A DNA stretch of 64,000 nucleotides from an uncultured Gammaproteobacteria bacterium (lineage in GTDB: Bacteria > Pseudomonadota > Gammaproteobacteria > SZUA-140), in NCBI GenBank assembly GCA_947258425.1, contig CAMYIG010000001.1:866-64865 (forward strand), read 5' to 3'. How positions within the stretch are numbered: the first letter of the stretch is position 1; every line of letters begins with the position of its first letter. The position numbers were made by a program, and so were the translations under genes. Shown here piece by piece: positions 10,887 through 42,390 of the stretch. Below the pieces are notes generated by a model. The model searched no databases, was not told the origin of the DNA, and saw nothing but the letters and a program-made list of their open reading frames with translations.

Positions 10887-11537
10887 ATGATTAAGGCGCT
10901 TTTTCCCTCACAAGTTGTCACCGTCACGGCAACGCCTGCCATGTGGGATGGCAAACTCTACCCCGAAGAGGCCGCTTTCATCCAGAAAGCGGTCATTAAA
11001 CGGAGACGCGAATTCACTGCTGGTAGACTATGTGCAAAAGCGGCGTTAAAAGCATTGGGGGTCACCGGCTTTCCAGTGCTGTCAGGGGGAGAGCGTGAAC
11101 CACTCTGGCCACCCGGCATCACCGGTAGCATCTCCCATTGCGATGACTATTGCGGAGTCGCACTGGCGCGTCAAGCAACGCTCACAAGCATTGGGCTAGA
11201 CATTGAAACCATTAGACCGTTAGACGACGACCTCGAAGCGATGATCTGCACACCGCAGGAAATAACACGCGCTAACCTATCTCCACCACCCTCAGGCAGC
11301 AATTGGCAAAAATTTATATTCAGTGCCAAAGAGTCTGTCTATAAATCACTGTTTCCAGTCACGCGAATTTACCTGGATTTTCAAGACCTCGACATAACCT
11401 TCGACAGTGACAGGTTGCAATTTTCAGCCACTCTGCTCACCCAGCTTCCAACAGAATATAACCTGCCAGACACCCTGACTGGCCACTTCAGGTACAACGA
11501 AAGTCACATCTTTACCGGAATTTCACTATCCCAATAA
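10887..11537 (+). CDS. 4'-phosphopantetheinyl transferase (Sfp/EntD type)
   Basis: EFTAGRLCAKAA, GSISHCDDY, GLDIETI and FSAKESVYK motifs of EntD/Sfp PPTases. It is adjacent to the NRPS genes. Confidence 0.85.
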   Translation: MIKALFPSQVVTVTATPAMWDGKLYPEEAAFIQKAVIKRRREFTAGRLCAKAALKALGVTGFPVLSGGEREPLWPPGITGSISHCDDYCGVALARQATLTSIGLDIETIRPLDDDLEAMICTPQEITRANLSPPPSGSNWQKFIFSAKESVYKSLFPVTRIYLDFQDLDITFDSDRLQFSATLLTQLPTEYNLPDTLTGHFRYNESHIFTGISLSQ

Positions 11538-11539
11538 AC

Positions 11540-12142
11540 CTAATATTTACCCAGAATAAGCCGCGCCTCACCCAGTAACATTGAGGGGTCATCCGCTGAT
11601 ACCGCTTTATAGACAGCCATTACATCCACATAATAAGTATTCCCAATCCCCCCTGAGCATGGCGGCAAATAACCGCCTACATCACCGCGATCGCTTCGGT
11701 GAAGTGCCTCAACATAAACGCCTTCCGGCAGGGCAGTGGTCTCAGCCGGAACAGAAGGGAACACAATGGAAGTCGTATCATTCGCCAGCGACATTCCTAT
11801 AACGCCATGGCCACCATTCAGCATCGGCTCGTAAGTTAAATCCCCAAATGCGAGCAGCACAGCATTTGCCTGTAATGGAATGTCAGAAATTAAGAGTGAA
11901 GGACTAGCCCCGCTGCCACCAAAATTGCGGCACTGCTGACCGTCTGGCACCGAGACCCCATCCCATTCTGAATCTGTGAAAGCGACCGCCAGTTGTGCGA
12001 CCTGTTCAGCTGGCGGGTAGGCACTCAATGGCAACTCAGGTTTGGCATCACGTTTAACGTAGAAAATAATGCCGACAAGCAGCCCTATAAAAATGATCGT
12101 GGACAGCAGGTATATCAGTTTATATGACTTATTAATATGCAT
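11540..12142 (-). CDS. Hypothetical membrane-anchored protein (N-terminal TM, periplasmic domain)
   Basis: 200-aa ORF with an N-terminal hydrophobic helix. I found no recognisable motif. It converges on the PPTase gene with a 2-nt gap. Confidence 0.4.
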   Translation of the reverse strand: MHINKSYKLIYLLSTIIFIGLLVGIIFYVKRDAKPELPLSAYPPAEQVAQLAVAFTDSEWDGVSVPDGQQCRNFGGSGASPSLLISDIPLQANAVLLAFGDLTYEPMLNGGHGVIGMSLANDTTSIVFPSVPAETTALPEGVYVEALHRSDRGDVGGYLPPCSGGIGNTYYVDVMAVYKAVSADDPSMLLGEARLILGKY

Positions 12143-12169: not shown

Positions 12170-13009
12170 TTAGTCTCTATTTAATTCGCGCGCATAAGCT
12201 TGCGCCATCCAGCCACTAATAGTCTCAATTAACTTTTCTTTATCTTTTCTCAGGATATAGGTGTGGTCTGATTCCGGAAAATAATTAACCTGTAGCTGGT
12301 CATTAAAATTCACGGCGCTGAACATATCCTTAAATTGTCCGGCATAATTATAGTCCTCATGGCCGCCACTGTAGACATACAACAGGTTTACTTTGCGCTC
12401 AACCAACTCGCGCAACTCTGCCTCGGTCTGTTGCTTTGGGGGTAATACCCAGAAGTAATCATCCTGACCTGGTCCATCGTCGACACCATCCCCTGAGGGT
12501 GAAATTAGACGTTTAATTCGGTTAAACCATCCACTCAACGAAAACAGACGGGCGCCATAGCGGCGCATCAGAAATGCAGGGGTACGATATGCGTAGCCGT
12601 CAAGAAAAATGGCACCGACCACTCGAGGGTCAATCACAGCCCCCTTATGCGCATTGGCAGCGCCGGTACATAACCCAAACAGGATGAACTTTTTGACGCC
12701 GTATTTACTCGTAAAGAAATCCATTGCAGCCTGAATATCACCAATGATCTGTTCTTCATAAGCACGCGTATCTTTATGCTTCTGGCTATCACCAATCCCA
12801 GATAGATCGAACCGAAAGGATCGCACACCCTGCACTGCTAAACGACGGGCTAATTCAACATGTAACCTAAAGGGGCCGACTCGATGGAGTAAGCCTGCAT
12901 TGAGCATAATAACGGCAGGCAACGTATCGTTAGCGACGGCCTCATCCACTTCGGTCGCAATGCCAACGAGGTCTTTATCCTGCCCAAAAGTAAATACGCG
13001 CTCCATCAC
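12170..13009 (-). CDS. Alpha/beta hydrolase-fold protein with a Cys nucleophile (candidate XrtA-associated hydrolase 1/2 type; possible acyl/peptidyl transferase)
   Basis: FRFDLSGIGDS loop; nucleophile elbow FILFGLCTGA (GxCxG, Cys where Ser is usual); C-terminal ESDHTY His. Its 4-nt overlap with the upstream gene indicates coupling. Confidence 0.7.
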   Translation of the reverse strand: MMERVFTFGQDKDLVGIATEVDEAVANDTLPAVIMLNAGLLHRVGPFRLHVELARRLAVQGVRSFRFDLSGIGDSQKHKDTRAYEEQIIGDIQAAMDFFTSKYGVKKFILFGLCTGAANAHKGAVIDPRVVGAIFLDGYAYRTPAFLMRRYGARLFSLSGWFNRIKRLISPSGDGVDDGPGQDDYFWVLPPKQQTEAELRELVERKVNLLYVYSGGHEDYNYAGQFKDMFSAVNFNDQLQVNYFPESDHTYILRKDKEKLIETISGWMAQAYARELNRD

Positions 13010-13788
13010 TTAGCACCCTCCGAAAGCATCATCACAATATCCTGCAATAATGTACTGAGTAGTAGTGCTGATTCGAGTTCTGATAACGCATCCCAATTGC
13101 CAGCGTCATCAATCACGCGGTATTCGACATCGGCACTCTGTAAACAATCGTAAAGCGCTTGATACTCGTCTTTAGCATCAGAACCTACTATAAATACCCG
13201 CTTTGCTTTCGCTAAAAAATCTTTTTTCAGATCTAATGCTTCAATCTCAGAACACATTTCCTCAGAAAATGAAAAACCCAACAGTTCATTTTCGCCTTCG
13301 CCCTGCCGAGGTACGCTAAAACGATCAGGGTCAGCCAACATCTGCTGATGCATAGACTTTTGTGACGCGATGTAGTCTCGTCCACTGACCACGGGATCCC
13401 AGAGCACGAGCTCTTCAATATTCAAAGACTCTATTGAGGACGCAATCACAGCCCCCAGGCGCAACCCCACTAATGACACTCGCGTATTGCCCGACAGGCT
13501 CTTTAACTCTTCCACCGCCATCGAGACATCTTCGCAGCTTTGTGTCAGACGCCACTCTTCTGACGAGCCAGATGAATCACCCGTTCCATAGTAATCAAAT
13601 CGAAGCACATGAAAACCGGCCTTCGCCAGCAGGTCGGCCAGGCGATTAAACATTTTAAATGACCGCATGTATTCCTGGCCGAATGGATAGCAAAGCACAA
13701 CACTCGTATCTCGTAAGTCACGAGATCTTGGCGGGTGATAGATGCCAAACAGCTGCTTATTGGAAGCGCCAAAAAAGAATGGATTCAT
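13006..13788 (-). CDS. Alpha/beta hydrolase-fold protein, apparently nucleophile-less (pseudo-hydrolase?)
   Basis: LRFDYYGTGDSSG loop; the expected nucleophile elbow reads SLVGLRLGAV, with Arg in the Ser position; no obvious C-terminal catalytic His. ATGA overlap with the downstream hydrolase gene. Confidence 0.65.
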   Translation of the reverse strand: MNPFFFGASNKQLFGIYHPPRSRDLRDTSVVLCYPFGQEYMRSFKMFNRLADLLAKAGFHVLRFDYYGTGDSSGSSEEWRLTQSCEDVSMAVEELKSLSGNTRVSLVGLRLGAVIASSIESLNIEELVLWDPVVSGRDYIASQKSMHQQMLADPDRFSVPRQGEGENELLGFSFSEEMCSEIEALDLKKDFLAKAKRVFIVGSDAKDEYQALYDCLQSADVEYRVIDDAGNWDALSELESALLLSTLLQDIVMMLSEGAK

Positions 13789-13929: not shown

Positions 13930-16900
13930 CTATTTATTGAGCAACCTATTTTTAATTTTATTAAAAAAACCGGGAGATGCCGCAGCTTTTCGCTCAACGT
14001 TCGCTGACGAATCGACCGATCGTTGTTGTTGCCCCCCTGTGTCCTGTATATCAGGCTTACTGTCCACATCAGGAAGCGAATGCGTTGCCGCAATGGCTCC
14101 CAGCGACTCCATCAATAAAACCCTTGGTGAAATCACAACCGCGGTCTCTTTCCGAATGCGTTCAATCACCTTCATCGACAACAATGAGTGCCCACCCAGA
14201 TCAAAAAAATTATCGTGCACACTCACTCGTTCAATACCCAGTGCTTCACACCACACGGTAGCAAGGTATTTTTCTGTCCCTGTTTCAGGGGAGACATACT
14301 CATCATTTTCATAACTATCACCAAAGGGCGCTGGTAAACGTTTCCGATCTAATTTACCGTTCGGTGTCACCGGAAAACCGTCCATTTCAACGATGTGCTG
14401 AGGCACCATATATTCGGGTAACAGGGCACGCAAGTGCGTCCTTATTTCTGTCACTGTGGCGCCTTCGCCTCGCTTATAAATAAGATAGGCCACCAGGCGA
14501 TGATCACCAGGACGATTTTCCCAGACGTTCACTACAGCTCGCTCAATGGCATCATGTTCGCTGAGCGCAGACTCAATCTCACCCAGCTCTATTCTAAAGC
14601 CTCGCACCTTTACCTGATTATCAATACGTCGCATGTACTCAACATTACCATCATCGTGATAGAACGCGAGGTCACCTGTGCGATAGAGTCGACTATTTTC
14701 ATCAAATGGATTTGGAACAAAACGCTCTGCCGTCAATTCTGGGCGATTCAGATAATCGCGCGCAAGGCCAGCGCCACCAATATAAATCTCACCCGGGACA
14801 CCAACAGGCACAGGAAGGAGATGCTCATCAAGCAGATAAATCTGCGTGTTTTCGATCGGTCGACCGATCAATACTGTTGCCTCATCCGCATCACGTTTCA
14901 CTTGATAACGCATCGACCATACTGTCGTTTCTGTCGGGCCATAGAGATTCCATAACTCATCGCATTTTTCAACAAGTTGGCTTGCCAGTTCACGCGGCAT
15001 TGCTTCACCACCGCATAATACCTTCAGGCCTGATGTGCCCTGCCAATCTGATTCCAGTAGTAAACGCCAGGTAATCGGGGTTGCCTGCATAACAGTGATA
15101 TTTTCACTGGCGATAAGCGCCAGTAGACGGGTGCCATCAGAAGCCGCATCACGACTTGCGATGACCGTTGTAGCACCGGTCGTCAGTGGCAAATAGAGTT
15201 CAAGTACTGCAATATCAAAAGAGATAGTGGTCACAGCAAGCAGACGATCAACTTCTGTCAAACCTGGCGCACGCCGCATCGCACAAAGAAAGTTGACCAC
15301 GGCACGGTGCGGCAGCGTCACTCCCTTGGGCTTTCCGGTTGAACCGGATGTATAAATCACGTAAGCAAGATCATCAGATTGACCTTGCTTTAGCGGGTTT
15401 CGATCATCTTCTGCAGCAATCTTCGACCAGTCACTATCGATAAAGACGGTGCGCCCCGCATAACCCGTCAGACGTTCTTTTAACGCCGCCTGAATCACCA
15501 CTAACGGGGCCTGACTATCGCTCAACATATATGCCAGACGTTCTGTTGGATACGCAGGATCAAGCGGCACGTAAGCGCCCCCTGCTTTCAAAATGCCCAA
15601 CAACCCCACCATCATATCCAGTGAGCGCTCAACACATATGCCGATTAGTTGGCCGGGCTCGACACCTGCTTTAATTAAATAATGCGCTAGCTGGTTTGCT
15701 CGCTTATTTAGTTCGGCATAACTTAAATGCTTATCCTCAAAAACGCATGCGGATTTATCGGGAAAACGTTCAACTTGCGCCTCGAAGAGCTCATGCAGCT
15801 TGCTTTCAGCAGGAAACACTACGTTTGTGTTGTTCCACTCATTAATAATAAGTGACCTCTGCTCATCATCAAGTAACGACAGTGTTGCCAATTTTGCATC
15901 AGGTTGCTCAACAACCCGCATGAGCAGCACCTCAAACAGTTTAACCAAACGTTCAATGGTGTGTGCCTCGAATATATCAGCATTATATGCTAGTGCACCT
16001 GAAATTCCATCCGCGCTATCAGACAACATTAAATCAAGGTCAAAATGAGCAGTACCTCTTTCAAATTGATATTCACTCACTTCCACGCCAGACAAAGGAA
16101 AGTTATCGCACAAGGTTTCATTATGAAGCATAAACATCACCTGAAACATTGAGGTATGATTCAATGCTCGATGATGAGGAATCTTCTCCAGAATACTTTC
16201 GAACGGAAGATCCTGATGCGAAAAACAATCGACAGTAGACTCAGCAACATGCTCGACAATATCTCTAAACGTTGAGTCTGATGAAAACTCTGTACGCATC
16301 ACCAGATTATTAGAAAAATCCCCGAACATACTATCTAACTCTGGTCGGCTGCGGACCGTCGGTGACATACCCGTTAAAATATCTTCCTGGTTAGTATAGC
16401 GATACAGCAGACACTGGAATGCAGATAACAGCGACATAAATAAAGTCGAACCTAACGTTCCGCTTAATATTTTAAGTTGCTGGGAAAGCGTCTTCGGCAA
16501 TAAAAACCGATGGGTCCTACCCTTAAATGACATCACTCTTGGCCGCGGATGATCAGTCGGTAGATCAAGCACCGTGTTCGCATCCTGTAGATAGGCTTTC
16601 CAGTACTCCAGCTGGTTATTCACCTCATTAGACGCCAGCCAGTACTTTTCCCATAATGCAAAGTCACGGTACTGCGCAATGAAATTATCACCAGCCCCAT
16701 CGCCTACAGGGTTAGAGCCATCCGTTTTATGCGCGTTATAAGTAGTACTTATCTCGTTAACAAGTAACCGTACAGAAAGACCATCCATTGCGAAATGATT
16801 CGTTGTCATGATGAACACATGCTCATCTTCCGCCAACTGAATAACCAACACCCGTAAGTTAATATCATTGGTAAGATCAAACGGCGTACTAATTTCAGCA

Positions 16901-17325
16901 TTCACCGTTTCGAGCAGTTGACGTTCTTGCGCCTCAGAGGAGATAGCCTTCAAATCATCAACGACCATGCTAAACAGCGTCGATGGCAACAACTTCTGAT
17001 AAAGTTCATCCTCGCCCTCTAAACAGGCAGTTCGTAACACTTCATGACGTTGTACTACCTGCTGAAGACTTTTCTCGAGAATTGTAAGATCTAACTCACC
17101 CTTGAGTCGCACTATAAAAGATTCATTATAAGCAGAGCTTGCAGGATCCATCTGATAGATAAACCAGAAACGTCGTTGCGCTGATGACAAAGGCACCATT
17201 ACATCTTCAGCAACACGTGGCAGCGGTAATTGTTTCAATCCAATCTCGATGTCATCCAGCATTACGTCAAATAATTCGAGCTGATCTGAAGAGAGCGCAT
17301 CCAGCGCTTGATATACATCCTTCAT
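13930..17325 (-). CDS. NRPS module C-A-T with predicted Gly specificity; no TE domain
   Basis: C-domain core TNHFAMDGLS (HHxxxDG variant). A-domain cores LSYAELN.., YVIYTSGSTGKPKGV, NLYGPTETT, YRTGDL, GRIDNQVKVRGFRIELGEIE, NGKLDRK. Stachelhaus positions read by eye against GrsA give D-I-L-Q-L-G-L-V-W-K, close to the Gly code DILQLGLIWK. PCP FFDLGGHSL. A ~60-aa Ser/Gln-rich tail follows, with no thioesterase. ATGA overlap with the upstream NRPS gene. Confidence 0.9.
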   Translation of the reverse strand: MKDVYQALDALSSDQLELFDVMLDDIEIGLKQLPLPRVAEDVMVPLSSAQRRFWFIYQMDPASSAYNESFIVRLKGELDLTILEKSLQQVVQRHEVLRTACLEGEDELYQKLLPSTLFSMVVDDLKAISSEAQERQLLETVNAEISTPFDLTNDINLRVLVIQLAEDEHVFIMTTNHFAMDGLSVRLLVNEISTTYNAHKTDGSNPVGDGAGDNFIAQYRDFALWEKYWLASNEVNNQLEYWKAYLQDANTVLDLPTDHPRPRVMSFKGRTHRFLLPKTLSQQLKILSGTLGSTLFMSLLSAFQCLLYRYTNQEDILTGMSPTVRSRPELDSMFGDFSNNLVMRTEFSSDSTFRDIVEHVAESTVDCFSHQDLPFESILEKIPHHRALNHTSMFQVMFMLHNETLCDNFPLSGVEVSEYQFERGTAHFDLDLMLSDSADGISGALAYNADIFEAHTIERLVKLFEVLLMRVVEQPDAKLATLSLLDDEQRSLIINEWNNTNVVFPAESKLHELFEAQVERFPDKSACVFEDKHLSYAELNKRANQLAHYLIKAGVEPGQLIGICVERSLDMMVGLLGILKAGGAYVPLDPAYPTERLAYMLSDSQAPLVVIQAALKERLTGYAGRTVFIDSDWSKIAAEDDRNPLKQGQSDDLAYVIYTSGSTGKPKGVTLPHRAVVNFLCAMRRAPGLTEVDRLLAVTTISFDIAVLELYLPLTTGATTVIASRDAASDGTRLLALIASENITVMQATPITWRLLLESDWQGTSGLKVLCGGEAMPRELASQLVEKCDELWNLYGPTETTVWSMRYQVKRDADEATVLIGRPIENTQIYLLDEHLLPVPVGVPGEIYIGGAGLARDYLNRPELTAERFVPNPFDENSRLYRTGDLAFYHDDGNVEYMRRIDNQVKVRGFRIELGEIESALSEHDAIERAVVNVWENRPGDHRLVAYLIYKRGEGATVTEIRTHLRALLPEYMVPQHIVEMDGFPVTPNGKLDRKRLPAPFGDSYENDEYVSPETGTEKYLATVWCEALGIERVSVHDNFFDLGGHSLLSMKVIERIRKETAVVISPRVLLMESLGAIAATHSLPDVDSKPDIQDTGGQQQRSVDSSANVERKAAASPGFFNKIKNRLLNK

Positions 17326-20300
17326 TTCACGACTCCTTTTTGCTCAACTAAACTGCGCGCGCTCAGTTGGTCACTCACTTCCCCTTTCGACAACTGTTTA
17401 ATCCGTTCAATCAGCCCTATCACACGCGAGTTAACATCCTCTTTAATCGCTACATTATTTTCACCATTCCGATATATTGCGCCACCCAATAGTGAGTGCA
17501 CAAAATAATGCCGCTCTTCAACATCAAACAACGCTCTAACCTTGTCAAAGTTTGCACCACCAATCTGACAAACAGCCAAATCGTGCTCACGCGCAGATTC
17601 ATCAATAAGGTGTGCGATGATCCCTGTTTCGAGTTTAGCCAGATAAGTAGAATACTTACCATAAGATGGCGCAACGGCACCAAGATCAGTGACAAAAAAT
17701 AGTGAAAATGCAGCTTCATCATAGATAGGAGTATTAACATACGGGACATGAATCGCGCGACTGATCTGCGCATCCTTTGTTAACGTGACCAAACGATGTT
17801 CAATGGGATGATAATAATATGTGCCCGCAGGAATGCCTTCGATTCTTCCTGGTTTAACATGCAGATAAACCTGCGTAGCGTAAAGCCCACCAGGGGAGGA
17901 ATAAAGATACTTTGGTTTACCATCCACCTCTATCTGATAAAAACATGACAGAAAATCACTAAACTGATCAAAAGGGATACACTCCAGTGAAAAACGTCGA
18001 TGACTAAAACGGTTCGCATATTTTTTCCTGAACGCTTCATCATCCACTGGTTTTTTGAGTTGTAAAAACTCTTTGCCTTCATCATTTTTTCGTATACCGG
18101 GCTGCGAATTCTTAAATGCCTCTCGCTCCGCGGGGTCGCGTAACTGCTGATATGAGGCAATCAGTGCTTTGACGCCCGAAAGTTCGCCTTCATCCTCGAC
18201 CGTTTTTTCCTTGTTGTCCTGCGCGCTATTGCTACGACAATAATCAGCAATGGCATTGACACTCTGAAGACGAAATATCTCATCCATACGCGGCCGAAAA
18301 CCAAACATCTTCTCCAGTTGATTACCAATCTTCACCATATCAAGCGAATTGGCACCCATTGATATCAGGTTCGCTTCATTCGACAGGTTATCCATTGATA
18401 ACAGCTCACAGATCATCGCATTCAACTGCGTAACAATCTCAGAATTATTAGCGGAGAGTGCGCTCTCTGAAGGACTGTCCTGCGGCTCCGGAAGTGATTT
18501 TCGATCCACTTTTCCGTTACGTGTCAGTGGCAGCTCATCCAGCGTTATAAACATGGCAGGCACCATGTAGTCTGGAAGTCTGCTAGCGAGATGTTCACGC
18601 AATTTATTTTCATCGATGGCATATCCCGGCGCCTTAACGAGATAAGCCAGCAGTCGCTGTTTTCCCGTCTGCGCAACCGTTACAACAGCGCTTATCACTG
18701 ACTCATGCTGTTGCAGTGCAGCCTCTACTTCACCACACTCAATCCGCTGCCCCTGAATCTTTATCTGAAAATCGGTACGGCCGACAAATTGAATATTGCC
18801 ATCGGGGAGGTAACGTCCAAGATCGCCAGTACGGTAAATCCGTTCACCAGTCTCCGGATGTTTTACAAATTTTTCAGCGGTTTTCTGTTCGTCCTGCCAG
18901 TACCCCATCGCAACGCCGATGCCGGCGACACACATCTCACCAGCCACCCAGTCAGGACACGGCGCAAGCGCCTCATCAAGAATATAATAGCGAGTATTCG
19001 CGATCGGCTTTCCGTATGGGATGCTTTTCCACGTGGGGTCAATCTGCTCAACGGGATACCAGATATTCCAGAGTGTCGTCTCCGTCGGCCCACCCACACT
19101 CACCAGTTGCGCACCTGTTTCTTTTTTAAGCCGCGCTGGCAACCCCAGTGGAATCCAGTCCCCCCCCAGAAATGCAGTCCGTAGACTATCGGGCGCGGTA
19201 CCGGGGTGACTCTCTACGTAGCACAGCAGCATATCCATCATTGCCGGTACAGAATTCCAGATGGTGGGCCTAAACTTCTGCATCATATCCACCCAATGAG
19301 CCGGGTCTCGACGCTCTTCTGGATCGGGCATCACGATTGAGCCGCCAGCACCCAGCATGCCAAACATGTCATAAATCGACATGTCATGATGCAGTGCAGT
19401 GACCGCTAATACACGGTCATCCGAACCCACATTAAAACAGCGGTTGGTTTCAACGATGGCATTCACCACGCCTCGATGGTTTAACATCACCCCTTTCGGT
19501 GTTCCGGTCGAACCAGAGGTATAGATGACATAAGCAAGATCATCTGGGGTCTGCAAATGAGCTAATGGCCCATCATCATATTCAGCGATATCATCGCTAT
19601 CCACACATAGCAGGGTTAAACCTTCAGGCCAGTTAATTTTATCAACCAACCACGACTGCGTTAATACTAGTTCAACGCCACTATTTGCTAACAACTTGCA
19701 TAAGCGCTCGCTCGGCTGCAAGGCATCCATTGGCGCATAGGCAGCACCCGACTGCAGCACACCATAGGCCGCAACCGCTTGCTCCCATCCTTTATCCATT
19801 ACAATCGCGACCAGCTTATTCGGCATGGCGTTCAGTTCACGTAAGCGTCTTCCCCAGCGGTTTGCTAACCCCAATAACTCTCTATAATTTAATGTTCGTT
19901 GAGTGGTAATCACGGCATCACTATCACCGGCTGTTTCAGCATGCGCAATAAACAGGTCTTGCAGCAGCCCTTGTGGCACATCGCGCTGATTATCATTGAC
20001 CTGTGCTCGACGTATTTTCTGCGACTCAGGCAGTAATCTCGTCGTAATCTCAAGCCAGCTCGCCTGCCATGCAGATTGATCAGCGGCTAGCCACTCCAGT
20101 AGCTGAATATAGGCATGTCCCATATCCTCCTGCAGCCCATCCGGGAAAAGCTCGCTGACATAGTCCCAGTCAACACCTAAGACACCCTTATATTCATAAA
20201 TATGATTATCAAGCCAGACCTGCGGCGTCTGATTAACGGCAAAAGTGACATTACCAATCAATCTTGCCGCATTAACGGTATACGCACTCGTGCCATCGGG

Positions 20301-21503
20301 GGCCTGTGGTGCACCGGTAAACACCACCGGTTTCAGACTCTCAGAACCACTCTTACCCTGCGTTGAAAGCTCTCTCAAAATATCTACGCCAGTAAAATAG
20401 TTATGATCCAGGTCATTCCATAACTGCTGCTGCACCACTTTCGCCTCATCGAGAAAATGGGCCTTGTCACCAATATCGATATCCAGCAGGCTAAATGAAG
20501 CGGCCTCACCGACAATGTTGTTGACCTGAGGGTCGAGTGGAAAACGATTAAACTGAGGGATATTCAGACAGAAATTTCGACTTTGACTCCACATCGCAAT
20601 CACATAAGCGTATGCCGTTAGCAAAACCACAATGGGGGTGACACCACTTTGATTGCAGTGCTGTTTAATACTGTTCCAGCTAGTTGCGCCCAGTTTAAGG
20701 CCTAGCCGGGTAAAGCGTCCCTCGTCAACTTCCTGAGGTGTTTTGGCAAGCGGCAGATCTGGTGCTGCAGACATGCGATCAATGCGTTGCTTCCAGTAAT
20801 CGGCATCTGCTTTAAATTTACTTGATTTTTTTAACGCGCGCTCAGCAAATACATAATCTCTAAATGTCAGATTAAGCGGGGGCAATGGCTCATCAGGACG
20901 ATGATAAAGCTGCGCCCATTCGGTGAAAATCACCGTCAAACTCCAGCCATCTACAATCAGCGCATCGAAACCGATATGCAGCCGTAACAGTCCATCTCTC
21001 AATTGTGCCGCAGTAATGGTAAACAGTGGCCACTGGTCTGAAGGTAGCACCTGATGTGAAATATTGTATCGCAGCTCCGCCAACTTCTTCTCGCGCGCAC
21101 CTTCATCGTGCTGCGTAAGGTCGACATAATCTATTTTATAGTCGGGTGTCTCCTCTAAAATCCGCTGATCACCATCGCGACTGATCACAACCCGCATCAT
21201 TTCATGCCGCACTATAAGCTTACAAAACGCCTCATTTAAACGCGCATAGTCAAGTTCATCTTCAATTTCATGATAAGCATAGCCCGCGACTTTACCCATC
21301 TCAAATGCGCCACTGCGTCCAATCCAGTACGCCTGCTGAAGTTCAGTCAACGGAAAAGGATCATAACGCTGGGCAGGGTTCGCCGTGATTTTATCAGATG
21401 CGATGTCAATCTTTTCAGCCGCCTGCTTCTGCGCAAGCTTCTTGATTAATAAAGCTCGCTTTTCAGGAGTAAGCCCTTCTAGCCGTTTTTTAAGGTCTGT
21501 CAT
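17322..21503 (-). CDS. NRPS module Cy-A-T-Ox (heterocyclisation, Cys-like adenylation, PCP, C-terminal FMN oxidase; thiazole-forming)
   Basis: Cy1 FPLTELQQAYWIGR; Cy2 RHEMMRVV..DGDQ; the Cy signature DALIVDGWS (DxxxxD) replaces HHxxxDG. A-domain cores YVIYTSGSTGTPKGV, GGPTETT, YRTGDL, GRTDFQIKIQGQRIECGEVE, NGKVDRK. Specificity residues ~D-M-Y-N-F-G-V-L-W-K resemble the Cys code DLYNLSLIWK. PCP LISMGANSL. The C-terminal ~285 aa carry YLYSSPGGLYATQVY, a McbC/SagB-like nitroreductase-fold oxidase signature, arranged as in BlmIII. The basic N-terminal helix KKRLEGLTPEKRALLIKKLAQK is a possible docking element. Confidence 0.9.
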   Translation of the reverse strand: MTDLKKRLEGLTPEKRALLIKKLAQKQAAEKIDIASDKITANPAQRYDPFPLTELQQAYWIGRSGAFEMGKVAGYAYHEIEDELDYARLNEAFCKLIVRHEMMRVVISRDGDQRILEETPDYKIDYVDLTQHDEGAREKKLAELRYNISHQVLPSDQWPLFTITAAQLRDGLLRLHIGFDALIVDGWSLTVIFTEWAQLYHRPDEPLPPLNLTFRDYVFAERALKKSSKFKADADYWKQRIDRMSAAPDLPLAKTPQEVDEGRFTRLGLKLGATSWNSIKQHCNQSGVTPIVVLLTAYAYVIAMWSQSRNFCLNIPQFNRFPLDPQVNNIVGEAASFSLLDIDIGDKAHFLDEAKVVQQQLWNDLDHNYFTGVDILRELSTQGKSGSESLKPVVFTGAPQAPDGTSAYTVNAARLIGNVTFAVNQTPQVWLDNHIYEYKGVLGVDWDYVSELFPDGLQEDMGHAYIQLLEWLAADQSAWQASWLEITTRLLPESQKIRRAQVNDNQRDVPQGLLQDLFIAHAETAGDSDAVITTQRTLNYRELLGLANRWGRRLRELNAMPNKLVAIVMDKGWEQAVAAYGVLQSGAAYAPMDALQPSERLCKLLANSGVELVLTQSWLVDKINWPEGLTLLCVDSDDIAEYDDGPLAHLQTPDDLAYVIYTSGSTGTPKGVMLNHRGVVNAIVETNRCFNVGSDDRVLAVTALHHDMSIYDMFGMLGAGGSIVMPDPEERRDPAHWVDMMQKFRPTIWNSVPAMMDMLLCYVESHPGTAPDSLRTAFLGGDWIPLGLPARLKKETGAQLVSVGGPTETTLWNIWYPVEQIDPTWKSIPYGKPIANTRYYILDEALAPCPDWVAGEMCVAGIGVAMGYWQDEQKTAEKFVKHPETGERIYRTGDLGRYLPDGNIQFVGRTDFQIKIQGQRIECGEVEAALQQHESVISAVVTVAQTGKQRLLAYLVKAPGYAIDENKLREHLASRLPDYMVPAMFITLDELPLTRNGKVDRKSLPEPQDSPSESALSANNSEIVTQLNAMICELLSMDNLSNEANLISMGANSLDMVKIGNQLEKMFGFRPRMDEIFRLQSVNAIADYCRSNSAQDNKEKTVEDEGELSGVKALIASYQQLRDPAEREAFKNSQPGIRKNDEGKEFLQLKKPVDDEAFRKKYANRFSHRRFSLECIPFDQFSDFLSCFYQIEVDGKPKYLYSSPGGLYATQVYLHVKPGRIEGIPAGTYYYHPIEHRLVTLTKDAQISRAIHVPYVNTPIYDEAAFSLFFVTDLGAVAPSYGKYSTYLAKLETGIIAHLIDESAREHDLAVCQIGGANFDKVRALFDVEERHYFVHSLLGGAIYRNGENNVAIKEDVNSRVIGLIERIKQLSKGEVSDQLSARSLVEQKGVVK

Positions 21504-21641: not shown

Positions 21642-24600
21642 TCATTCGTCTTCAAGCTCACCCAATAGCGCAAGCAACTCATCTTCGTTTACATTCTCCA
21701 GCATCATCTGTTCAATCTTGCTGGAAAAATCGACCAATCGAGGCGAAAGAAAGATCGCTTGAAGTGGAATATCAATCGCAAAGTCCTGTCGGATGCGTGT
21801 AATCAACTGCACCGCGATCAACGAATGCCCGCCAATCTCGAAGAAATTATCGTACAACCCCACCTGCTTGAGCCCCAGTAACGCCTGTAAAATAGTAGCG
21901 ACCTGAATCTCAACTTCGCTAGCAGGTGCGACATATTCTGCCTGAGTATCAATATTCCCTTGCTCCGGCACTGGGAGTTTTTTACGATTAATTTTTCCAT
22001 TCGGTAATAATGGCAATCCCGCTAGCACGACGTAATTTACGGGCACCATAAATTCAGGTAAATGTTGTCCCAGATAGTTGCGTAGCGCATTGATATTGAT
22101 GTCAGTGCCTGTGTCTGGCACCACATACGCAACAAGCTTTTTATTCCCGGGCTCATCTTCTCGCAGTAGCACAAGCGCGTCATTCACTTCGGTATTCTCT
22201 AACAGAAGCTTCTCGATCTCACCCAGCTCAATCCGATAGCCATGTAGCTTGACCTGATGGTCGATGCGCCCCATGAACTCCAGCCGCCCATCACGACCCA
22301 TGCAGACCAGGTCGCCCGTTCGATACATACGGTCATTTAAATCACCACTCACACTGTTTTTTACAAACTTTTCAGCAGTGAGCTCGGGGCGATTCAGATA
22401 ACCCCGTACCACGCCGTCACCGGCAATTACCAGTTCACCCGGCACACCCAGCGGCTGAAGTTGCATATTGTTATCCAGCACATAGGTCTGTGTATTCGCA
22501 ATCGGGGAGCCCAATGGAATATCTGCGTCTGCCTCATGTAAATGATACGTGGTTGACCAGATCGTCGTCTCAGTCGGCCCGTACATATTCGTCACTTGAC
22601 CTTTCACCAATGAACGCAGCTTTACTGCCAACTGACTCGAAAAGGCTTCACCGCCCACCATCATATGAGACAAGCATCCCAGTGCGTGATGCATCTGCTG
22701 GTCTGATGCCAGCATATTGGCCATCGTTGGCGTACATTGAAAATGCGTGACGTTGTGTCGCTCGATAAGTGCAGCGATGGAATAATCCTTATCCGCCCCA
22801 TCAGACTGCGGCGGGTTAGCCGCCTCCTTCACCTGGCTTAGATAATGGAGGTGGGCCAGTACTTTTTCGGTCTCGATGCCAAAATCGATCAGACAACCGA
22901 TCTCATCCACCCCTATTTCCTTGAGTTGATCTGCACGTTCAACGCATCGTTCAACATTCCCAAAGAGCCCGCTGTGGTTATAATAGCGATCAAACGCGAA
23001 GGCCAGCAGGCTATCTCTATCCTCATCAGAAATATTATTAAAAAACTCATCCATGGTCTGCTCTGTACCCTCGGATACCTGCTTCCACGCCGGGCTATGC
23101 CACGCGGCCGCTTTCACCAGAGAAACTGCACTTTCCAGATAGTCCATCATCGGCTGCTGTGCAACATCACGCACCTGCGCCTCATCATCGCCGATGAAGG
23201 TGTGTAGCATTAATGTGACTTGCCCATCACCTGCATGACCGGCCTCTTTCCAGGCGCTACGATAGAGCCGAATATTCTCTGCCACCTTTTCAATATCCTG
23301 TCCGAGCAGGTGCGTCAGCACATGTGCACCAATTGATCCAGCCTGTCGGAAGGTGTCAGGATTCACCGCAACCGTTACCCAAATTGGTAACTTTTCCTGA
23401 ATAGGTCTAGGGTAGGTGCGGACTTCAACATCGCCTTTCGGCCCCGCAAACGTGACAGCCTCACCTTTCCATAATTGCTGGATAGTCTCAACGGAATCAA
23501 ACATGATCTCTTTTGCGCGCGCATGATTCTCAGGCTTGATCACAAAATCATTCGGCTGCCAGCCGGGCGCAATCGAAAGCCCCGCACGGCCATTGGAAAG
23601 GTTATCCACCACCGACCACTCTTCTGCGATGCGAATAGGGCTATGCAGTGGCACCACACAACTGCCCGCACGAATACCGATGTTTTGCGTAGTGGCCGCC
23701 AGTGCGGCACCGATGACTGAGGGGTTAGGGTACAGTCCGCCAAAGGCACCGAAATGTCGCTCAGGTGTCCATAGCGCTTCGAAGCCATTTTTGTCGGCGT
23801 ATTTAGCGCTTTCGAGCAGTAACTTATACTTATCTGCCTCGCGAGATGCCTCGTCTTTTACAAAATTCCAGTAAAAAAGACTAAAGGCAATCGGCTGAGC
23901 GGGGTATCGTGTCGCCACTTCCCCAGCCTTCAGGTCATCACCGGCGTAGAGCACCAGTTTAAACCCTCGACAGAGACTCCAGAAAATCTCAAGCACGGAG
24001 ATATCAAACGATATACTGGTCACAGCCAACCACACACCCGGGGAATCATGCGCAATGCGCTCATCCATGCCTGCGAAGAAATTCACCACATTACGGTGTT
24101 CGACCATCACCCCTTTGGGACGCCCGGTCGAGCCCGAAGTATATATCACATAAGCCAGACTCGATGACGCGCACGGGATTTCAAGATTATTATCGCTCTC
24201 GACATCGATTCGACTTCGCTCAAGATCAACCTGCAACAACTTTTCACCGGGCAGATAATTTGCGTAATCAGACTGGGTAACTACCAACGCCAGCTCTGCG
24301 TCATCGGCCATATAAACCAAACGATCTTTGGGATAAGTGGGATCCAGTGGCACATAGGCCGCGCCTGTTTTCCACGTTGCCAATAGCGCGATCACCATAT
24401 CAAAGGAACGATCCAACATCACACCGACCAGATCATCTACACCCACGCCATGTTTTACCAGATAGTGCGCCAGCTGATTTGCGCGAGCATTCAACTCATG
24501 ATAACTGAGGCTGTCATTGTGAAATGCCAGCGCGGATGTATCCGGTGTAGACACTACTTGTTGTTCAAACAGCTGAAATACACATCGATTTTCAGGGTAT

Positions 24601-27600
24601 GCAGTGGCAGTACCCGTGGCTATTTTTAATATGGCCTGTTGCTCTTCTCTCGGTAAAATCGGCACACTCGCTACCGGCGTATTGAGATCTTCAACCATGA
24701 CCTCCAGCACTTTTAGATAGTGCGCCAGCATACTTTCCATACGCGCTTGCGAGAAAAGGTCGGTGCAATATTCAAGTACCGCCTCCAGTCCAGAGGGACG
24801 CTCCCACATATAAAGGGTCATGTCATATTTTGAAGTACCACTATGAGTGTCCAGCTGTATCGTCCGCATGCCGGGAAGATTCATCACCGATTCATGCTCA
24901 AGCGCATCAAAAATAAACATCACCTGAAAAACCGGTGCATAACGTAAATCACGCTCTGGATTGAGCGCCTCAACCAATTTATCGAATGGCAATCCCTGAT
25001 GCGCAAAATCTGCAATGGTCGTCTTACGCACGCGGGCGATCAACTCTCTCAGTGAAACATCGCCTGATAGATCACAACATAAAGGGAGTGAGTTCATAAA
25101 CAGTCCGAGCATCGCTTCGGTCTCGAGCGGCTCGCGGTTCGCGACCGCAGTACCGACCACAAAATTCTCCTGTGATGAGTAGCGGTGGAGCAGTAATTGA
25201 TAGGCCGCCAACAGCAGCATAAATAGACTGGAACGCTCCTGTTGCGCAATGATATTAAGTCGCTGATGTAGCGCAGACGGTATCTTCAGGGTCACAGAAC
25301 TGCCATTAAATTGCTGCACGGACGAGCGTGGGAAATCAGTTGGTAACTCCAGTACCGGCGGCATCTGCTTTAACCGAGGCAGCCAGTAATCAATCTCCGC
25401 CTGAAGACGATCATCGGCCATATAAGTACTTTGCCAGGCAGTATAGTCAGCGTAATCGGCTGAGAGCTGAGGTAATTGCGGTTCAACGCCACTCACCATC
25501 GCACCATATACCTGCTCGAGCTCGCTTGCCAGCAGACGCACTGACCAGCCGTCAAACACGATGTGATGGATCACAAACGTCATCACATATTTTGATGGTG
25601 CCAGTTTGATAATATTGCAGCGCCACAACGGTCCCTGTTCGATATCGAACAGAGTGTGCGCCTCATTTGTGATCAACTTATCTATTTCCGCCTGCGGATC
25701 TGACGCCTGACTCAAGTCATGCATGAATACCGGCAAGTCGACCTGACCCGCTATCACCTGTGTCGGCGCGCCCCCTTTCACTGAAAACGTGGTACGCATT
25801 GAAGCGTGGCGCTTAACGATTACCGCCATCGCTTGTTTAAAGAGCTCGGGATCAAAATCACCATCGATCTTAAATGCATAAGGGATGTTATAGAGTGCGC
25901 CCACCTGCTCCATTTGCTCAAAAAACCAGATGCGACTCTGCATAAATGAAAGCGGGATATCGCCAGCATGTTCTTTTTTGTGTAGCACTGGTTGTGTCAC
26001 GGCCACATCCGTTACTGCCGATGACGAGATATATTTCGCAAGTTCAGCAATGGTGGGGGAGTTAAAGAGTGCAGTAATAGAAAGCTGCACACCGAACTCA
26101 CGCCGCAACCGGGCGACCATCTGCGCGGCCAGCAGGGAGTGGCCACCGGCATGAAAAAAATTAGCGTTCACACCTACTCTCTCTACACCCAAAAGGGCCT
26201 GCCATATCGCTGCGATCCTGGTTTCTGTATCGCCTGTCGGTGCAACATAATCACGATCTTCGAACAGGTCCGCGTACCGAGGATGGGGTAGCGCCTTTTT
26301 ATCCACCTTGCCATTCGCCGTTAAAGGAATCTCCGCAACAAAGACAAAATGCTGTGGAACCATATGGACAGGCAGACCATTGGCGACATAATCACGTAGT
26401 GCATCGACCTGTAGGCTGTCAGACTTTTTAACCACATACGCCACCAGGCGCTGGTCACCCACACCCAATTCAATGACATTCAATGCAACCTGCTTAACCT
26501 CGGGGTACGCAATGAGAAGCGATTCGATCTCACCAAGTTCTATTCTAAAGCCGCGCAATTGCACCTGGTCGTCAATTCGCCCTAGGTATTCCAGTTCATT
26601 ATTGGAGAGGCGGCGCGCTAAATCGCCAGTACGATACAGTCGGATGACAGTGCCGTTTTCTAACGTGTGGTTAATAAAACGTTCTGCGGTCAAGTCAGGC
26701 CGATTCAAATAGCCCTTCGATAGACCATCGCCGGCAACATACAGCTCCCCTTTCTGCCCATCGATAACAGGCTTCATCGCGTCATCAAAAAGATAGAGTT
26801 TCAGGTCTGGAATGGCCCGGCCAATCAGACTCCCCTTCGGGTGATCCACATCATCACGAGAAATGGGACGATACGTCACGTGCACGGTTGTTTCGGTGAT
26901 ACCGTACATATTAATCAATTGCGGGGCGTTGTCTCCGTGACGGGAAATCCACGGTTTTAAAGCGGCCAGGTTGAGCGCTTCACCGCCGAAGATCACATAA
27001 CGTAACGCCAGTGTATCTGCTGTGTGTCGCTCTTCATCCACCAGCTGTAGCTGCTGGAATGCTGAGGGGGTTTGATTCAGGACGGTGACCCCTTGCGATA
27101 TCAGCAGGGTATAAAACAATTCCGGGGTGCGTGCTGTTTCCGCTGACACAATCACCAGGCTGCCACCGTAGCTCAGCGCGCCCCAAATCTCCCACACAGA
27201 AAAATCAAAGGCATATGAGTGAAACAGGGTCCAGACATCATCCACACCAAAATCAAACCAGTGGTTAGTGGAATCAAAAAGCCGGGATACATTTTTATGA
27301 GTTACCTGCACTCCTTTGGGTGCCCCGGTAGAGCCCGAGGTATAGATGACATAGGCAAGGTGCTCGTCAGTCACCGCTACAGCAGGATTTTCTACTGTCG
27401 ATGAACCCTTCTCCATCGCATCAATCAATAAAATTTTAGCCGAACAGGCGGGTAAATTTTCGACCAGCGTCTGCTGCGTTACCAGTACAGCAGGTTTGGC
27501 ATCATTCAGGGTGTAGGCAATACGGGAAGCGGGGTAATTCGGGTCAACCGGCACATAGGCAGCGCCTGCCTTTAAAATACCCAAAATACCGATCACTGTA

Positions 27601-36070: not shown

Positions 36071-36073
36071 GGG

Positions 36074-37243: not shown

Positions 37244-37244
37244 C

Positions 37245-40493: not shown

Positions 40494-40535
40494 AAAATTT
40501 CAGACTTAATGCACCATCGCTCACTGTTCATCCCT

Positions 40536-42387: not shown

Positions 42388-42390
42388 ACA

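Follow-up and report, generated by a model that had tools for sequence, protein, structure and literature searches.

A predicted azole-forming Cy-A-PCP-Ox module of a four-module NRPS within an XrtA/PEP-CTERM exopolysaccharide locus

Nonribosomal peptide synthetase (NRPS) modules with the domain order Cy-A-PCP-Ox (cyclisation, adenylation, carrier, oxidase), in which the oxidase follows the carrier, are of the type of BlmIII and MtaC. FmoA3 is a module forming methyloxazoline from alpha-methyl-Ser. VibF, BasA and PmsG have Thr-assigned A domains that are linked to Cy domains. BmdB and BmdC belong to bacillamide biosynthesis (PDB 7ly4-7ly7), and in BmdC the FMN contacts and the catalytic Tyr have been assigned to R145, S147, R149, N236, Y260 and G294 (PMC8795117). 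For MtaG and MelG, alpha-hydroxylation of Gly was proposed to lead to a terminal amide and a carrier-bound alpha-keto acid (PMC11411415). As regards exosortase systems, PMC7293339 cites Craig et al. 2011 for a reported link between N-acyl amino acid synthase and PEP-CTERM. Here, we analysed a DNA stretch of 64,000 nucleotides (the window), in which a single open reading frame carries the following module.

17322..21503, minus strand: complete gene (1393 aa) for the third NRPS module in line, Cy-A-PCP-Ox (ORF list, translation, Pfam, orthologues)
20064..21365, minus strand: Cy domain, residues ~47-480 (Pfam Condensation, PDB matches, alignment to FmoA3 and BmdB)
18489..19946, minus strand: adenylation domain, residues ~520-1005, with A5 motif GGPTE (Pfam, alignment, LeuA code precedent)
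18240..18425, minus strand: PCP, residues 1027-1088, with the phosphopantetheine Ser1053 in GANSL (Pfam PP-binding, 38.4 bits)
17478..18017, minus strand: Ox domain, predicted FMN-dependent azoline oxidase, residues ~1163-1342 (TIGR03605, BmdC match, AF2 model and Foldseek)

Pfam placed Condensation at residues 51-477 (121 bits), AMP-binding at 520-869 (3e-87), AMP-binding_C at 925-998, PP-binding at 1027-1088 and Nitroreductase at 1163-1332 of the 1393-aa protein. The reading frame is intact and the domains come in the order given by the initial annotation, whose quoted sequence motifs were all found; likewise, the oxidase was rightly placed C-terminal of the PCP and not as an insertion in the A domain, the latter being uninterrupted and the Nitroreductase match lying after PP-binding. 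One orthologue (P0001) is 94% identical, and further orthologues of the same length show 50-56% identity. Judged from its sequence, the product is an intact Cy-A-PCP-Ox module predicted to form and oxidise a five-membered ring; as such, it is another member of an already known kind of module.

The Condensation match of the Cy domain reached only 121 bits, compared with 313-356 bits in the neighbouring ordinary C domains, as expected for a domain of the Cy subtype. The solved relatives of the whole protein were, best first, FmoA3 (2e-221), BmdB (6e-208), PchE (7e-162), EpoB-Cy (8e-90) and HMWP2-Cy, all of them Cy-containing modules with scores far beyond chance. The active-site motif is DxxxxD (D180/D185), where ordinary C domains have HHxxxDG, and T396 (in VVFTG), D432 (in QVWLDN) and N314 match BmdB column for column in the alignment. 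We take T396 and D432 to be the equivalents of the catalytic T1196 and D1226 of BmdB, numbered as in the BmdB-Cy2 study, and N314 to be the Asn that is conserved in the NxPxFNR motif; the roles of these residues are those reported in the BmdB-Cy2 and EpoB-Cy studies. The BmdB numbering agrees with the 30-residue spacing seen in the BmdB alignment. With these catalytic residues kept, the Cy domain is predicted to be competent, and the Cy signatures, including a non-degenerate catalytic Asp, are borne out (D180/D185, T396, D432, N314). The carrier domain has the Ser of its GxxS motif at Ser1053 in GANSL, and the window encodes a phosphopantetheinyl transferase. That the motif reads GANSL instead of GGHSL, as remarked in the initial annotation, carries no meaning: members of the clade have LGANSI as their consensus, and the Ser that takes up phosphopantetheine is in place.

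10887..11537, plus strand: Sfp-type 4'-phosphopantetheinyl transferase (Pfam 4PPT_N and ACPS; NCBIfam PptT/Npt-like)

When the C-terminal 299 aa were searched alone, TIGR03605 (SagB family dehydrogenase) scored 90.8 bits, above its curated cutoff of 78.4 bits, and BmdC was matched at E=3e-30, compared with 4e-6 for the best generic nitroreductase. The conserved set of the domain comprises R1165, S1167, R1169, the SSPGG loop, the Asn of YVNTP, the catalytic Tyr of APSYG and the Gly of CQIGG; the equivalents of R145, S147, R149, N236, Y260 and G294 of BmdC are thus all kept, and they are invariant or nearly so among 25 clade members. The AF2 model of the Ox domain (pLDDT 86.4) was ranked by Foldseek closest to BmdC (1e-22), followed by ThcOx (9e-12) and McbC (1e-11); a few FMN nitroreductases came near 1e-11 (3hoi, 1e-11), while most generic nitroreductases lay further off, between 1e-10 and 1e-5. 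The claim of an McbC/SagB-type FMN oxidase was therefore upheld by the profile search, by the match to BmdC with its FMN contacts and Tyr, and by the modelled fold, and neither a generic nitroreductase at this end of the protein nor a degenerate Asp in the Cy domain was found. Two positions deserve attention, namely those of the phosphate-binding Arg R146 of BmdC, which is Phe here, and of S292, which is Gln. As FMN is lost from BmdC when R146E and S292F are combined (PMC8795117), one could suppose that the module or its oxidase no longer works or has degenerated, for example by failing to hold FMN owing to the Phe, so that the azoline would be kept or the module skipped. We regard this as highly improbable, given that the R146 position is free to vary across the clade (R/Y/F/K/S), that Gln is usual in the clade where BmdC has S292 (23 of 25 members), that the catalytic Tyr and all remaining FMN contacts vary little or not at all, that the reading frame is intact, with same-length orthologues at 50-94% identity, and that the model is confident. 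On sequence and model, the Ox domain is predicted to be a genuine NRPS-type FMN azoline oxidase.

Where the initial annotation did not hold up was in the substrate, which it took to be cysteine, with a thiazole as the product. The pocket code of the A domain reads DMYNFGVLWK (D707, M708, Y711, N750, F778, G780, V803, L811, W812 and K998), according to a mapping that recovers the canonical Cys codes in BmdB and in 64 of 120 homologues and that we consider sound for this reason. This code, which falls outside the Cys pattern DLYN[LM]S[LM]IWK, is identical to the Cys code DLYNLSLIWK at 5 of 10 positions (D235, Y239, N278, W331 and K517), with conservative changes at four further positions; and whereas the classical Cys type combines DLYN[LM]SLIWK with GGATE, the window A domain combines G301 with GGPTE. 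The pairing of G301 with GGPTE held in 27 of 27 cases, and that of S301 with GGATE in 88 of 92. The FG class of A domains, to which the window A domain belongs, proved monophyletic (22 tips), with no Cys-coded member inside.

With respect to described codes, that of LeuA from leupyrrin biosynthesis (DMFNFGVLWK), annotated as Thr/beta-OH-Thr in PMC12283262 (Table S16), differs from the window code at a single one of 10 positions; among the codes compared, no other near-identical one has a literature annotation. VibF, BasA and PmsG, whose A domains are assigned to Thr, share the pattern D-M-F-x-x-G-x-I-W-K, and the window code fits the corresponding Thr/Ser Cy-linked pattern D-M-[FY]-x-x-G-x-[IL]-W-K. 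The A core also scored higher on FmoA3 (378 bits; alpha-methyl-Ser) than on BmdB (341) and PchE (275), both of which are Cys-type. Activation of L-cysteine, with a thiazole formed as in BlmIII/MtaC/EpoB-type modules, would be compatible with the five shared and four conservatively changed code positions, with the Cys codes carried by the majority of the Cy-A-PCP-Ox homologues found, and with the fact that BmdC, the nearest solved relative of the Ox domain, works on thiazoline (PMC8795117). We nevertheless consider it rather unlikely, in view of the separate monophyletic G301/GGPTE subfamily, distinct from S301/GGATE, of the 9/10 match to the Thr-annotated LeuA code against 5/10 for Cys, and of the higher score of the A core on the Ser-type FmoA3. 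Threonine, or else a hydroxy amino acid close to it, is most likely what the A domain loads. Because of the separate subfamily and the LeuA match, a (methyl)oxazole (5-methyloxazole or oxazole) appears more likely as the product than a thiazole. Two observations concern the markers themselves: FmoA3 takes a Ser-type substrate yet carries S301, so that G301 is no proven discriminator, and the threonine call leans mainly on a single literature table entry, that of LeuA.

The genes on either side of the module make up the rest of the assembly line and a small set of accessory functions, as follows.

27883..28617, minus strand: class I SAM methyltransferase, heading the same-strand block (Pfam Methyltransf_25/11)
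21642..27815, minus strand: upstream NRPS, modules 1-2 (Pfam, NCBIfam, codes)
22827..23885, minus strand: MOx, MupA/Atu3671-type luciferase-like monooxygenase domain in the Gly A domain (TIGR04020)
13930..17325, minus strand: downstream NRPS, module 4, C-A(Gly code DILQLGLVWK)-PCP (Pfam, code)
13006..13788, minus strand: hyd2, alpha/beta-hydrolase-fold protein (best match exosortase-A-associated hydrolase 2, below cutoff)
12170..13009, minus strand: hyd1, alpha/beta hydrolase whose nucleophile is the Cys of G-L-C-T-G, with Asp-His towards the C-terminus; a candidate for off-loading
29255..30481, plus strand: FemAB-like GNAT (Acetyltransf_6; Pfam), with a homologue beside the cassette in L087 (tblastn, 39% identity)

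The upstream NRPS has the order A(Thr code DFWNIGMVHK)-PCP-C-A(Gly code DILQMGMIWK, MOx-split)-PCP, with the MOx domain (TIGR04020, 484 bits vs a cutoff of 244) inserted directly after the A4 motif of the Gly A domain. An MtaG-like Gly-A(MOx)-PCP module lies directly upstream of Cy-A-PCP-Ox in 10 of 10 contexts, its N-cap being variable (Thr here, formyl or acyl in orthologues). The downstream NRPS and the Cy-A-PCP-Ox gene share a 4-bp overlap, and Pfam found no TE/R domain in the former. At its nucleophile elbow, hyd2 carries an Arg (G-L-R-L-G) and no nucleophile; it scored 103.9 bits against TIGR03101, under the cutoff of 202.75, with a weak LuxD-like Acyl_transf_2 match. Similarly, hyd1 reached 81.4 bits against TIGR03100 (cutoff 168.45), and seven hyd1 homologues reached 65-94 bits. 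The Cys elbow of hyd1 fits the strict pattern in 97 of 120 homologues, and Cys was also present in 7 of the 8 non-matching examples listed. The hydrolase pair occurs with the same Cys and Arg elbows in L080, L087 and L168, and an orthologous phosphopantetheinyl transferase adjoins it in L080 and L168. By sequence, hyd1 and hyd2 look like relatives of the exosortase-A-associated hydrolases 1/2, forming a sister family and not members of these families. The Cy-A-PCP-Ox module belongs to a conserved, uncharacterised gene set.

Further exosortase functions were found around this block.

34904..63927, minus strand: XrtA/PEP-CTERM exopolysaccharide locus (profile matches, those of the XrtA system above curated cutoffs)
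54407..54970, plus strand: PEP-CTERM protein (PF07589), inside the XrtA locus
8334..9332, minus strand: XrtA/PEP-CTERM system-associated ATPase (TIGR03015, 363 bits vs a cutoff of 324.5)

The region 34904..63927 holds glycosyltransferases, deacetylases, WecB, a flippase, an outer-membrane protein and a Tyr kinase, together with a chain-length determinant, an export protein, PrsT, XrtA-EpsI, PrsR, PrsK and a priming sugar transferase. TIGR03109, 02916, 02915, 02917, 03027, 03007, 03018, 03016 and 03015 all scored above their NCBIfam cutoffs, XrtA, PrsK, PrsR, PrsT and the export, chain-length, Tyr kinase, outer-membrane and ATPase proteins each passing their own. The ATPase and the rest of the XrtA locus flank the NRPS on opposite sides. 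The NRPS sits inside a complete XrtA/PEP-CTERM locus, and the unusual glycan/exosortase setting reported previously is real. It is quite possible, all the same, that the block is an ordinary secondary-metabolite island inserted by chance, making a free small molecule with no link to exopolysaccharide or PEP-CTERM. Some clade members do lie away from polysaccharide genes, namely L084 (surrounded by mobile and toxin-antitoxin genes), L081 and L088 (adjoining cobalt transport and EPSP synthase), and these release by C-PCP-TE instead; moreover, the window hydrolases fall under the cutoffs of the exosortase-associated families. Against such an insertion, polysaccharide genes adjoin 8 of 11 contexts, including all 4 hydrolase-pair variants; on the P0004 contig the NRPS comes directly after four genes resembling, by Pfam families and sizes, the chain-length/Tyr kinase/outer-membrane/ATPase order; in the window the XrtA ATPase lies beyond the NRPS, on its other side; the FemAB-like GNAT and orf531 are common to the window and L087; and in GC content the block does not stand out from the neighbouring DNA. 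The cassette and its association with polysaccharide loci appear to be undescribed.

Overall, the protein probably works as an NRPS elongation module, one of four that are spread over three co-directional genes and the third in line, with a Thr-derived azole as its likely product. Its A domain would charge the PCP, at Ser1053, with an amino acid that has a beta-nucleophile, whereupon the Cy domain would condense the upstream glycine-derived acyl chain onto the loaded residue and close the azoline ring by cyclodehydration; the FMN oxidase at the C-terminus, related to BmdC but acting in cis, would then dehydrogenate the PCP-bound azoline to the azole, to be handed to the Gly-specific C-A-PCP module. 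The Cys-nucleophile hyd1 and the nucleophile-less hyd2 may stand in for a thioesterase domain; off-loading by this pair is suggested solely by the missing TE domain and by synteny. Whereas domain order, catalytic and cofactor residues, A-domain subfamily, synteny and the location in an XrtA locus are seen directly, the substrate, this off-loading role and any functional tie to the exopolysaccharide system are inferred. A bolder and, at present, distinctly speculative proposal is that the NRPS and hyd1/hyd2 are the counterpart of the unexplained exosortase-A set of acyl-ligase, carrier protein and hydrolases 1/2, putting an oxazole unit on a glycan or protein. In that case, the Gly(MOx) module might shed its variable N-cap as an amide, leaving a glyoxylyl thioester, which Cy-A-PCP-Ox could turn into a 2-acyl/formyl-(methyl)oxazole unit; after extension with Gly, hyd1 might move this unit from the carrier protein to the exopolysaccharide, for example to amines freed by the deacetylases of the locus, or to a PEP-CTERM protein. 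If true, this would amount to non-ribosomal peptide decoration of a glycan or sorted protein, and not to a free metabolite.

Compared with the BlmIII/MtaC type, the module is alike in its domain order, Cy motifs and SagB/McbC-type FMN oxidase C-terminal of the carrier, but differs in having a non-Cys-type A domain and an upstream Gly-A(MOx) always coupled to it, and in lying here with a hydrolase pair in an exopolysaccharide locus. BmdC is the nearest solved Ox relative both by sequence (3e-30) and by fold (1e-22, TM 0.90 on the Ox core), and module 2 of BmdB is among the best Cy-A-PCP matches; however, BmdC is a separate trans-acting protein with an RRE-like N-terminal domain, whereas the window oxidase is fused after the PCP, and BmdB has the canonical Cys code DLYNLSLIWK. 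LeuA (Sorangium cellulosum) agrees in its code at 9 of 10 positions, but leupyrrin retains its oxazoline, with no oxidation implied, and LeuA is part of a PKS-NRPS hybrid. FmoA3 (JBIR-34/35; PDB 6lta), the best whole-protein match, shares GGPTE, Y239 and N278, while being a Cy-A-PCP module without Ox, with the code DAYNVSSCWK and S301. MtaG/MelG (myxothiazol, melithiazol) resemble the window's upstream module in the C-A-MOx-A-T layout (PMC11411415) and Gly code; in the window, Gly-A(MOx) is internal, lacks a TE and feeds a Cy domain, and its N-cap varies among orthologues. Finally, the exosortase-A accessory enzymes (TIGR03100, TIGR03101 and the acyl-CoA ligase TIGR03098) likewise place paired unrelated hydrolases beside carrier-protein chemistry in an XrtA locus, the differences being that the window hydrolases score below the cutoffs and that a four-module NRPS would fill the ligase/ACP role.

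The Cy-A-PCP-Ox (heterocyclisation-adenylation-carrier-oxidase) gene lies in an NRPS block, which is made up as follows.

27883..28617, minus strand: SAM methyltransferase
21642..27815, minus strand: A(Thr, code DFWNIGMVHK)-PCP-C-A(Gly, code DILQMGMIWK, split by MOx)-PCP
17322..21503, minus strand: Cy-A-PCP-Ox
13930..17325, minus strand: C-A(Gly, code DILQLGLVWK)-PCP, without TE
13006..13788, minus strand: hyd2, an alpha/beta hydrolase
12170..13009, minus strand: hyd1, its paired alpha/beta hydrolase
11540..12142, minus strand: membrane-anchored ORF of 200 aa with an N-terminal hydrophobic segment, directly after hyd1
10887..11537, plus strand: Sfp-type PPTase, adjoining the NRPS block

The insert that splits the upstream Gly A domain right after A4 is a MupA/Atu3671-type luciferase-like monooxygenase (MOx; 22827..23885, minus strand) and, since it divides the pocket, the code was read separately from the two halves. 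Overlaps of 4 bp are found between Cy-A-PCP-Ox and the C-A-PCP gene, and between hyd2 and hyd1. No family match was found for the 200-aa ORF, which recurs in L167, a second assembly from this organism, and is absent from L080, L087 and L168, three loci with relatives of the cassette.

The interval 17322..21503, which the initial annotation had described as a Cy-A-T-Ox module, is exactly one ORF of 1393 codons plus stop, and every string quoted in its support is present in the translation. Pfam placed Condensation at residues 51-477, AMP-binding at 520-869, AMP-binding_C at 925-998, PP-binding at 1027-1088 and Nitroreductase at 1163-1332, positions which imply an unsplit A domain and an oxidase C-terminal to the carrier domain, in the order first proposed. 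The Condensation match scored 121 bits and the two ordinary C domains of the neighbouring genes 313 and 356 bits, a difference expected of the Cy subtype. When the whole protein was compared with solved structures, the best matches all came from heterocyclisation modules: FmoA3 (2e-221), BmdB (6e-208), PchE (7e-162), EpoB-Cy and HMWP2-Cy. Residue-level alignment to BmdB and FmoA3 showed that the DxxxxD motif (D180/D185), N314 (the Asn of LNIPQFNR), T396 (VVFTG) and D432 (QVWLDN) are kept, so that the Cy motifs are not degenerate at the catalytic Asp. T357 and D387 of the BmdB chain are 30 residues apart as counted in the alignment, which we take to be the spacing of BmdB T1196/D1226, a pair presumably needed for cyclodehydration; the roles of the Cy residues are those reportedly established in studies of BmdB-Cy2 and EpoB-Cy. 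The GANSL sequence of the PCP, thought at first to be unusual, is the consensus of the clade of close Cy-A-PCP-Ox relatives.

The oxidase assignment was upheld by both sequence and fold. The C-terminal 299 residues alone scored 90.8 bits against the SagB family model TIGR03605 (cutoff 78.4), and the sole strong sequence match among solved structures was BmdC (E=3e-30), the thiazoline oxidase of the bacillamide NRPS, the next being a putative nitroreductase (4e-6). An AlphaFold2 model of the domain (pLDDT 86.4, pTM 0.81) likewise had BmdC as its best match (E=1e-22; TM 0.90, normalised to the 7ly5_B Ox core), followed by ThcOx and McbC at about 1e-11, level with a few FMN nitroreductases, while most generic nitroreductases matched at 1e-10 to 1e-5. 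On the TIGR03605 score, the BmdC sequence match and the fold ranking, the reading as a generic nitroreductase was rejected. In BmdC, FMN is contacted by R145, R146, S147, R149, N236, G294 and backbone 182-186, and Tyr260 is catalytic (PMC8795117). The equivalents in the window are R1165, F1166, S1167 and R1169 for the first four, the Asn of YVNTP for N236, the Gly of CQIGG for G294, the SSPGG loop (within the YLYSSPGGLY motif noted earlier) for the backbone stretch, and the Tyr of APSYG for Tyr260. These contacts and the catalytic Tyr are invariant or nearly so in 25 clade members, except at the R146 position, where R, Y, F, K and S all occur; at the S292 position, 23 of the 25 have Gln. Taken alone, the module is a standard azole-forming unit, another member of a familiar class.

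The substrate of its A domain is another matter. We mapped the ten pocket positions via GrsA numbering around A4, A5 and the adjacent motifs and an LgrA alignment, followed by pairwise alignment to 120 homologues. The mapping is sound, in that it returned canonical codes (DLYNLSLIWK or DLYNMSLIWK) for 64 of the 120 homologues, as well as for BmdB. The codes compared were the following.

Pocket codes of the A domain and of reference domains
Window Cy-A-PCP-Ox: DMYNFGVLWK (pocket mapping)
LeuA (leupyrrin): DMFNFGVLWK, beta-OH-Thr/Thr (single literature annotation, in PMC12283262)
VibF, BasA and PmsG: DMF[SVC]AGLIWK, Thr (literature table)
FbsF: DMFCNGIIWK, Ser/Thr (literature table)
BmdB: DLYNLSLIWK, Cys (read directly from the alignment)
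FmoA3: DAYNVSSCWK, alpha-methyl-Ser (code from the alignment)

The initial annotation had seen in this pocket a resemblance to the Cys code and had predicted a thiazole. The usual shortcut, by which Cy plus Ox means cysteine and a thiazole, gives the same answer. Against this call stand (i) the code itself, whose class (D[ML][YF]NFG[VT]LWK) comprises 23 of the 120 homologues, every close orthologue included; (ii) the monophyly of this class in a neighbour-joining tree of A domains (22 tips), with zero Cys-coded members inside; (iii) the A5 motif, since all 27 domains with Gly at position 301 have GGPTE and 88 of the 92 with Ser301 have GGATE; and (iv) the A core bit score, higher with FmoA3 (378) than with the Cys-activating BmdB (341) and PchE (275). 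The leupyrrin papers do not give the amino-acid origin of the oxazoline, so that the LeuA assignment rests on the annotation in PMC12283262. On these grounds a Thr-like substrate, giving a (methyl)oxazole, is rated above cysteine and is somewhat favoured as the outright answer by the sequence comparisons, while activation of cysteine with a thiazole product is rather unlikely; the cysteine/thiazole assignment is probably wrong. The shortcut would then probably fail for every member of the G301/GGPTE group, a monophyletic subfamily among Cy-linked A domains, to which genome-mining pipelines would assign the wrong substrate.

Close orthologues of Cy-A-PCP-Ox have 50-56% identity and the same length, and in 10 of 10 contexts (the window counted) Gly-A(MOx)-PCP lies directly upstream. 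Exact-sequence look-ups of the window's own Cy-A-PCP-Ox protein and of the protein P0130 gave no match. The di-module, in which Cy-A-PCP-Ox comes after a capped Gly-A(MOx)-PCP, is conserved and uncharacterised; it was found in an uncultivated gammaproteobacterium, a cyanobacterium (Xenococcus) and several unclassified metagenomic contigs, and its product is possibly an alpha-ketoacyl-azole. The parts at either end vary.

N-terminal cap, A(Thr)-PCP-C: window
N-terminal cap, formyltransferase domain: L080, L081, L085, L087
N-terminal cap, C-F: L084
N-terminal cap, C alone: P0004 contig, L083, L086, L088
Release, hyd2/hyd1 pair: window, L080, L087
Release, C-PCP-TE: L081, L086, L088 (with DUF362 in L081 and L086)
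Release, DUF362 and a stand-alone C domain: L085
Release, C-A-PCP-TE: L083

Possibly the variable cap serves as a leaving group that is sacrificed. Among the TE-type di-modules (L081, L085 and L086), the Cy-A-PCP-Ox gene is repeatedly accompanied by a DUF362 protein and by a C-PCP-TE (or C) protein that stands alone. L168 (1..10816) has the F-A(MOx)-PCP start and a tail of C-A-PCP, hyd2, hyd1, PPTase and beta-helix protein, with a PKS module (KS-AT-KR...) in place of Cy-A-PCP-Ox, which makes the cassette's middle module interchangeable. Neither the hydrolase pair nor XrtA (exosortase A) genes were found at 79 GTDB-representative loci, all of which are generic Cy-A-PCP(-Ox) with 35-50% identity, and from a metagenome scan came just two more members of the clade, L088 and L089.

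The hydrolase pair occupies 12170..13788 (minus strand) in the window, 17606..19280 in L080, 14229..15877 in L087 and 9243..10816 in L168. Hyd1 has a G-x-C-x-G elbow (G-L-C-T-G in the window) with a Cys nucleophile and a C-terminal Asp-His, and hyd2 a G-[LI]-R-x-G elbow (G-L-R-L-G), in which Arg leaves it without a nucleophile; both elbows are kept in the other three loci. The strict Cys pattern holds in 97 of the best 120 of 1416 hyd1 homologues, and 7 of 8 example misses have Cys at the same site. The exosortase-A-associated hydrolase families are the best match of both proteins at scores below the cutoffs, which makes the pair a sister family of those hydrolases. Seven hyd1 homologues sampled from the 120 all fall well below the cutoff of TIGR03100 (exosortase-A-associated hydrolase 1), and the large hyd1 family (1416 matches), which scores below that model, lacks a dedicated NCBIfam model. 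Two further genes travel with the hydrolase-pair cassette and have counterparts in L087 (18365..22144): orf531 (33019..34614, plus strand), for which no Pfam match of its own was found and which shows 62% identity to a Pel9A-like beta-helix protein there, and a FemAB-like GNAT (Acetyltransf_6; 29255..30481, plus strand), whose identity is 39%. Beta-helix proteins also flank the cassette in L168.

The glycan/exosortase setting proposed for the NRPS was borne out by a complete XrtA/PEP-CTERM system in the window, each component of which (PrsK, PrsR, XrtA-EpsI, PrsT, export protein, chain-length determinant, Tyr kinase and outer-membrane protein) scores above its curated cutoff, together with glycosyltransferases, deacetylases, WecB, a flippase, a priming sugar transferase and a PEP-CTERM protein. 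The NRPS separates these genes from the XrtA-associated ATPase (8334..9332) and is therefore embedded in the XrtA locus. The exosortase (57340..58929, minus strand) is XrtA (TIGR03109) fused to a C-terminal EpsI domain (TIGR02914), and has a good score, below cutoff, against XrtW. The small PEP-CTERM protein (54407..54970, plus strand; 187 aa; tail VPEPATIAMMGLGLIGLGFMARRRNS) is flanked by the export gene and PrsT, and no second PEP-CTERM signal was found elsewhere in the window; none was detected on a 706-aa protein with Big_9/cadherin-like repeats (30822..32942, plus strand) between the NRPS and glycosyltransferase blocks. In the exopolysaccharide block are three genes of the polysaccharide deacetylase family and one for a 611-aa protein that carries an APH-type kinase domain (46295..48130, 38381..41249 and 48177..49205, all minus strand); they point to an amino-sugar polymer that is partly de-N-acetylated and possibly phosphorylated. 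A protein with two cNMP-binding domains and a rhodanese domain (2650..3849, minus strand) gave a weak partial match, far below cutoff, to the family 2B encapsulin shell model. Rfam returned no RNA families in the window. The OTC of the window and its hyd1 are 100% identical to proteins on one NCBI contig, and among named organisms the OTC is closest to Chromatiales and Thiotrichales MAGs, at 85% identity.

Polysaccharide genes also adjoin the cassette in L080, L083, L085, L086, L087 and L168, and are lacking beside it in L081, L084 and L088. On the P0004 contig, four genes come immediately before the NRPS, and their Pfam families and sizes fit the order chain-length determinant, Tyr kinase, outer-membrane protein, ATPase. 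Overall, such neighbours are present in 8 of 11 contexts and in 4 of 4 of the hydrolase-pair type, in a small and uncontrolled sample.

Our literature search found no report of an NRPS inside an exosortase locus and nothing relevant on MOx with thiazole, and Haft 2006 does not mention ligase/hydrolase accessory genes. N-acyl amino acid synthases have been linked to PEP-CTERM systems (Craig et al. 2011, cited by PMC7293339). The presence of carrier-protein chemistry and a Cys-hydrolase pair inside a complete XrtA locus offers a tractable model for the role of the widespread exosortase-A-associated hydrolases, to which the pair is related; any function past the module level is what we infer. The cassette, with its capped Gly-A(MOx), Cy-A(non-Cys)-PCP-Ox, Cys-hydrolase pair and exopolysaccharide/exosortase association, looks like an undescribed variant. 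In MtaG and MelG, which have the same Gly-A(MOx) layout, alpha-hydroxylation of glycine is proposed to yield an amide at the terminus and an alpha-keto acid bound to the carrier (PMC11411415); the MOx module of the window is internal, has no TE and feeds the Cy domain.
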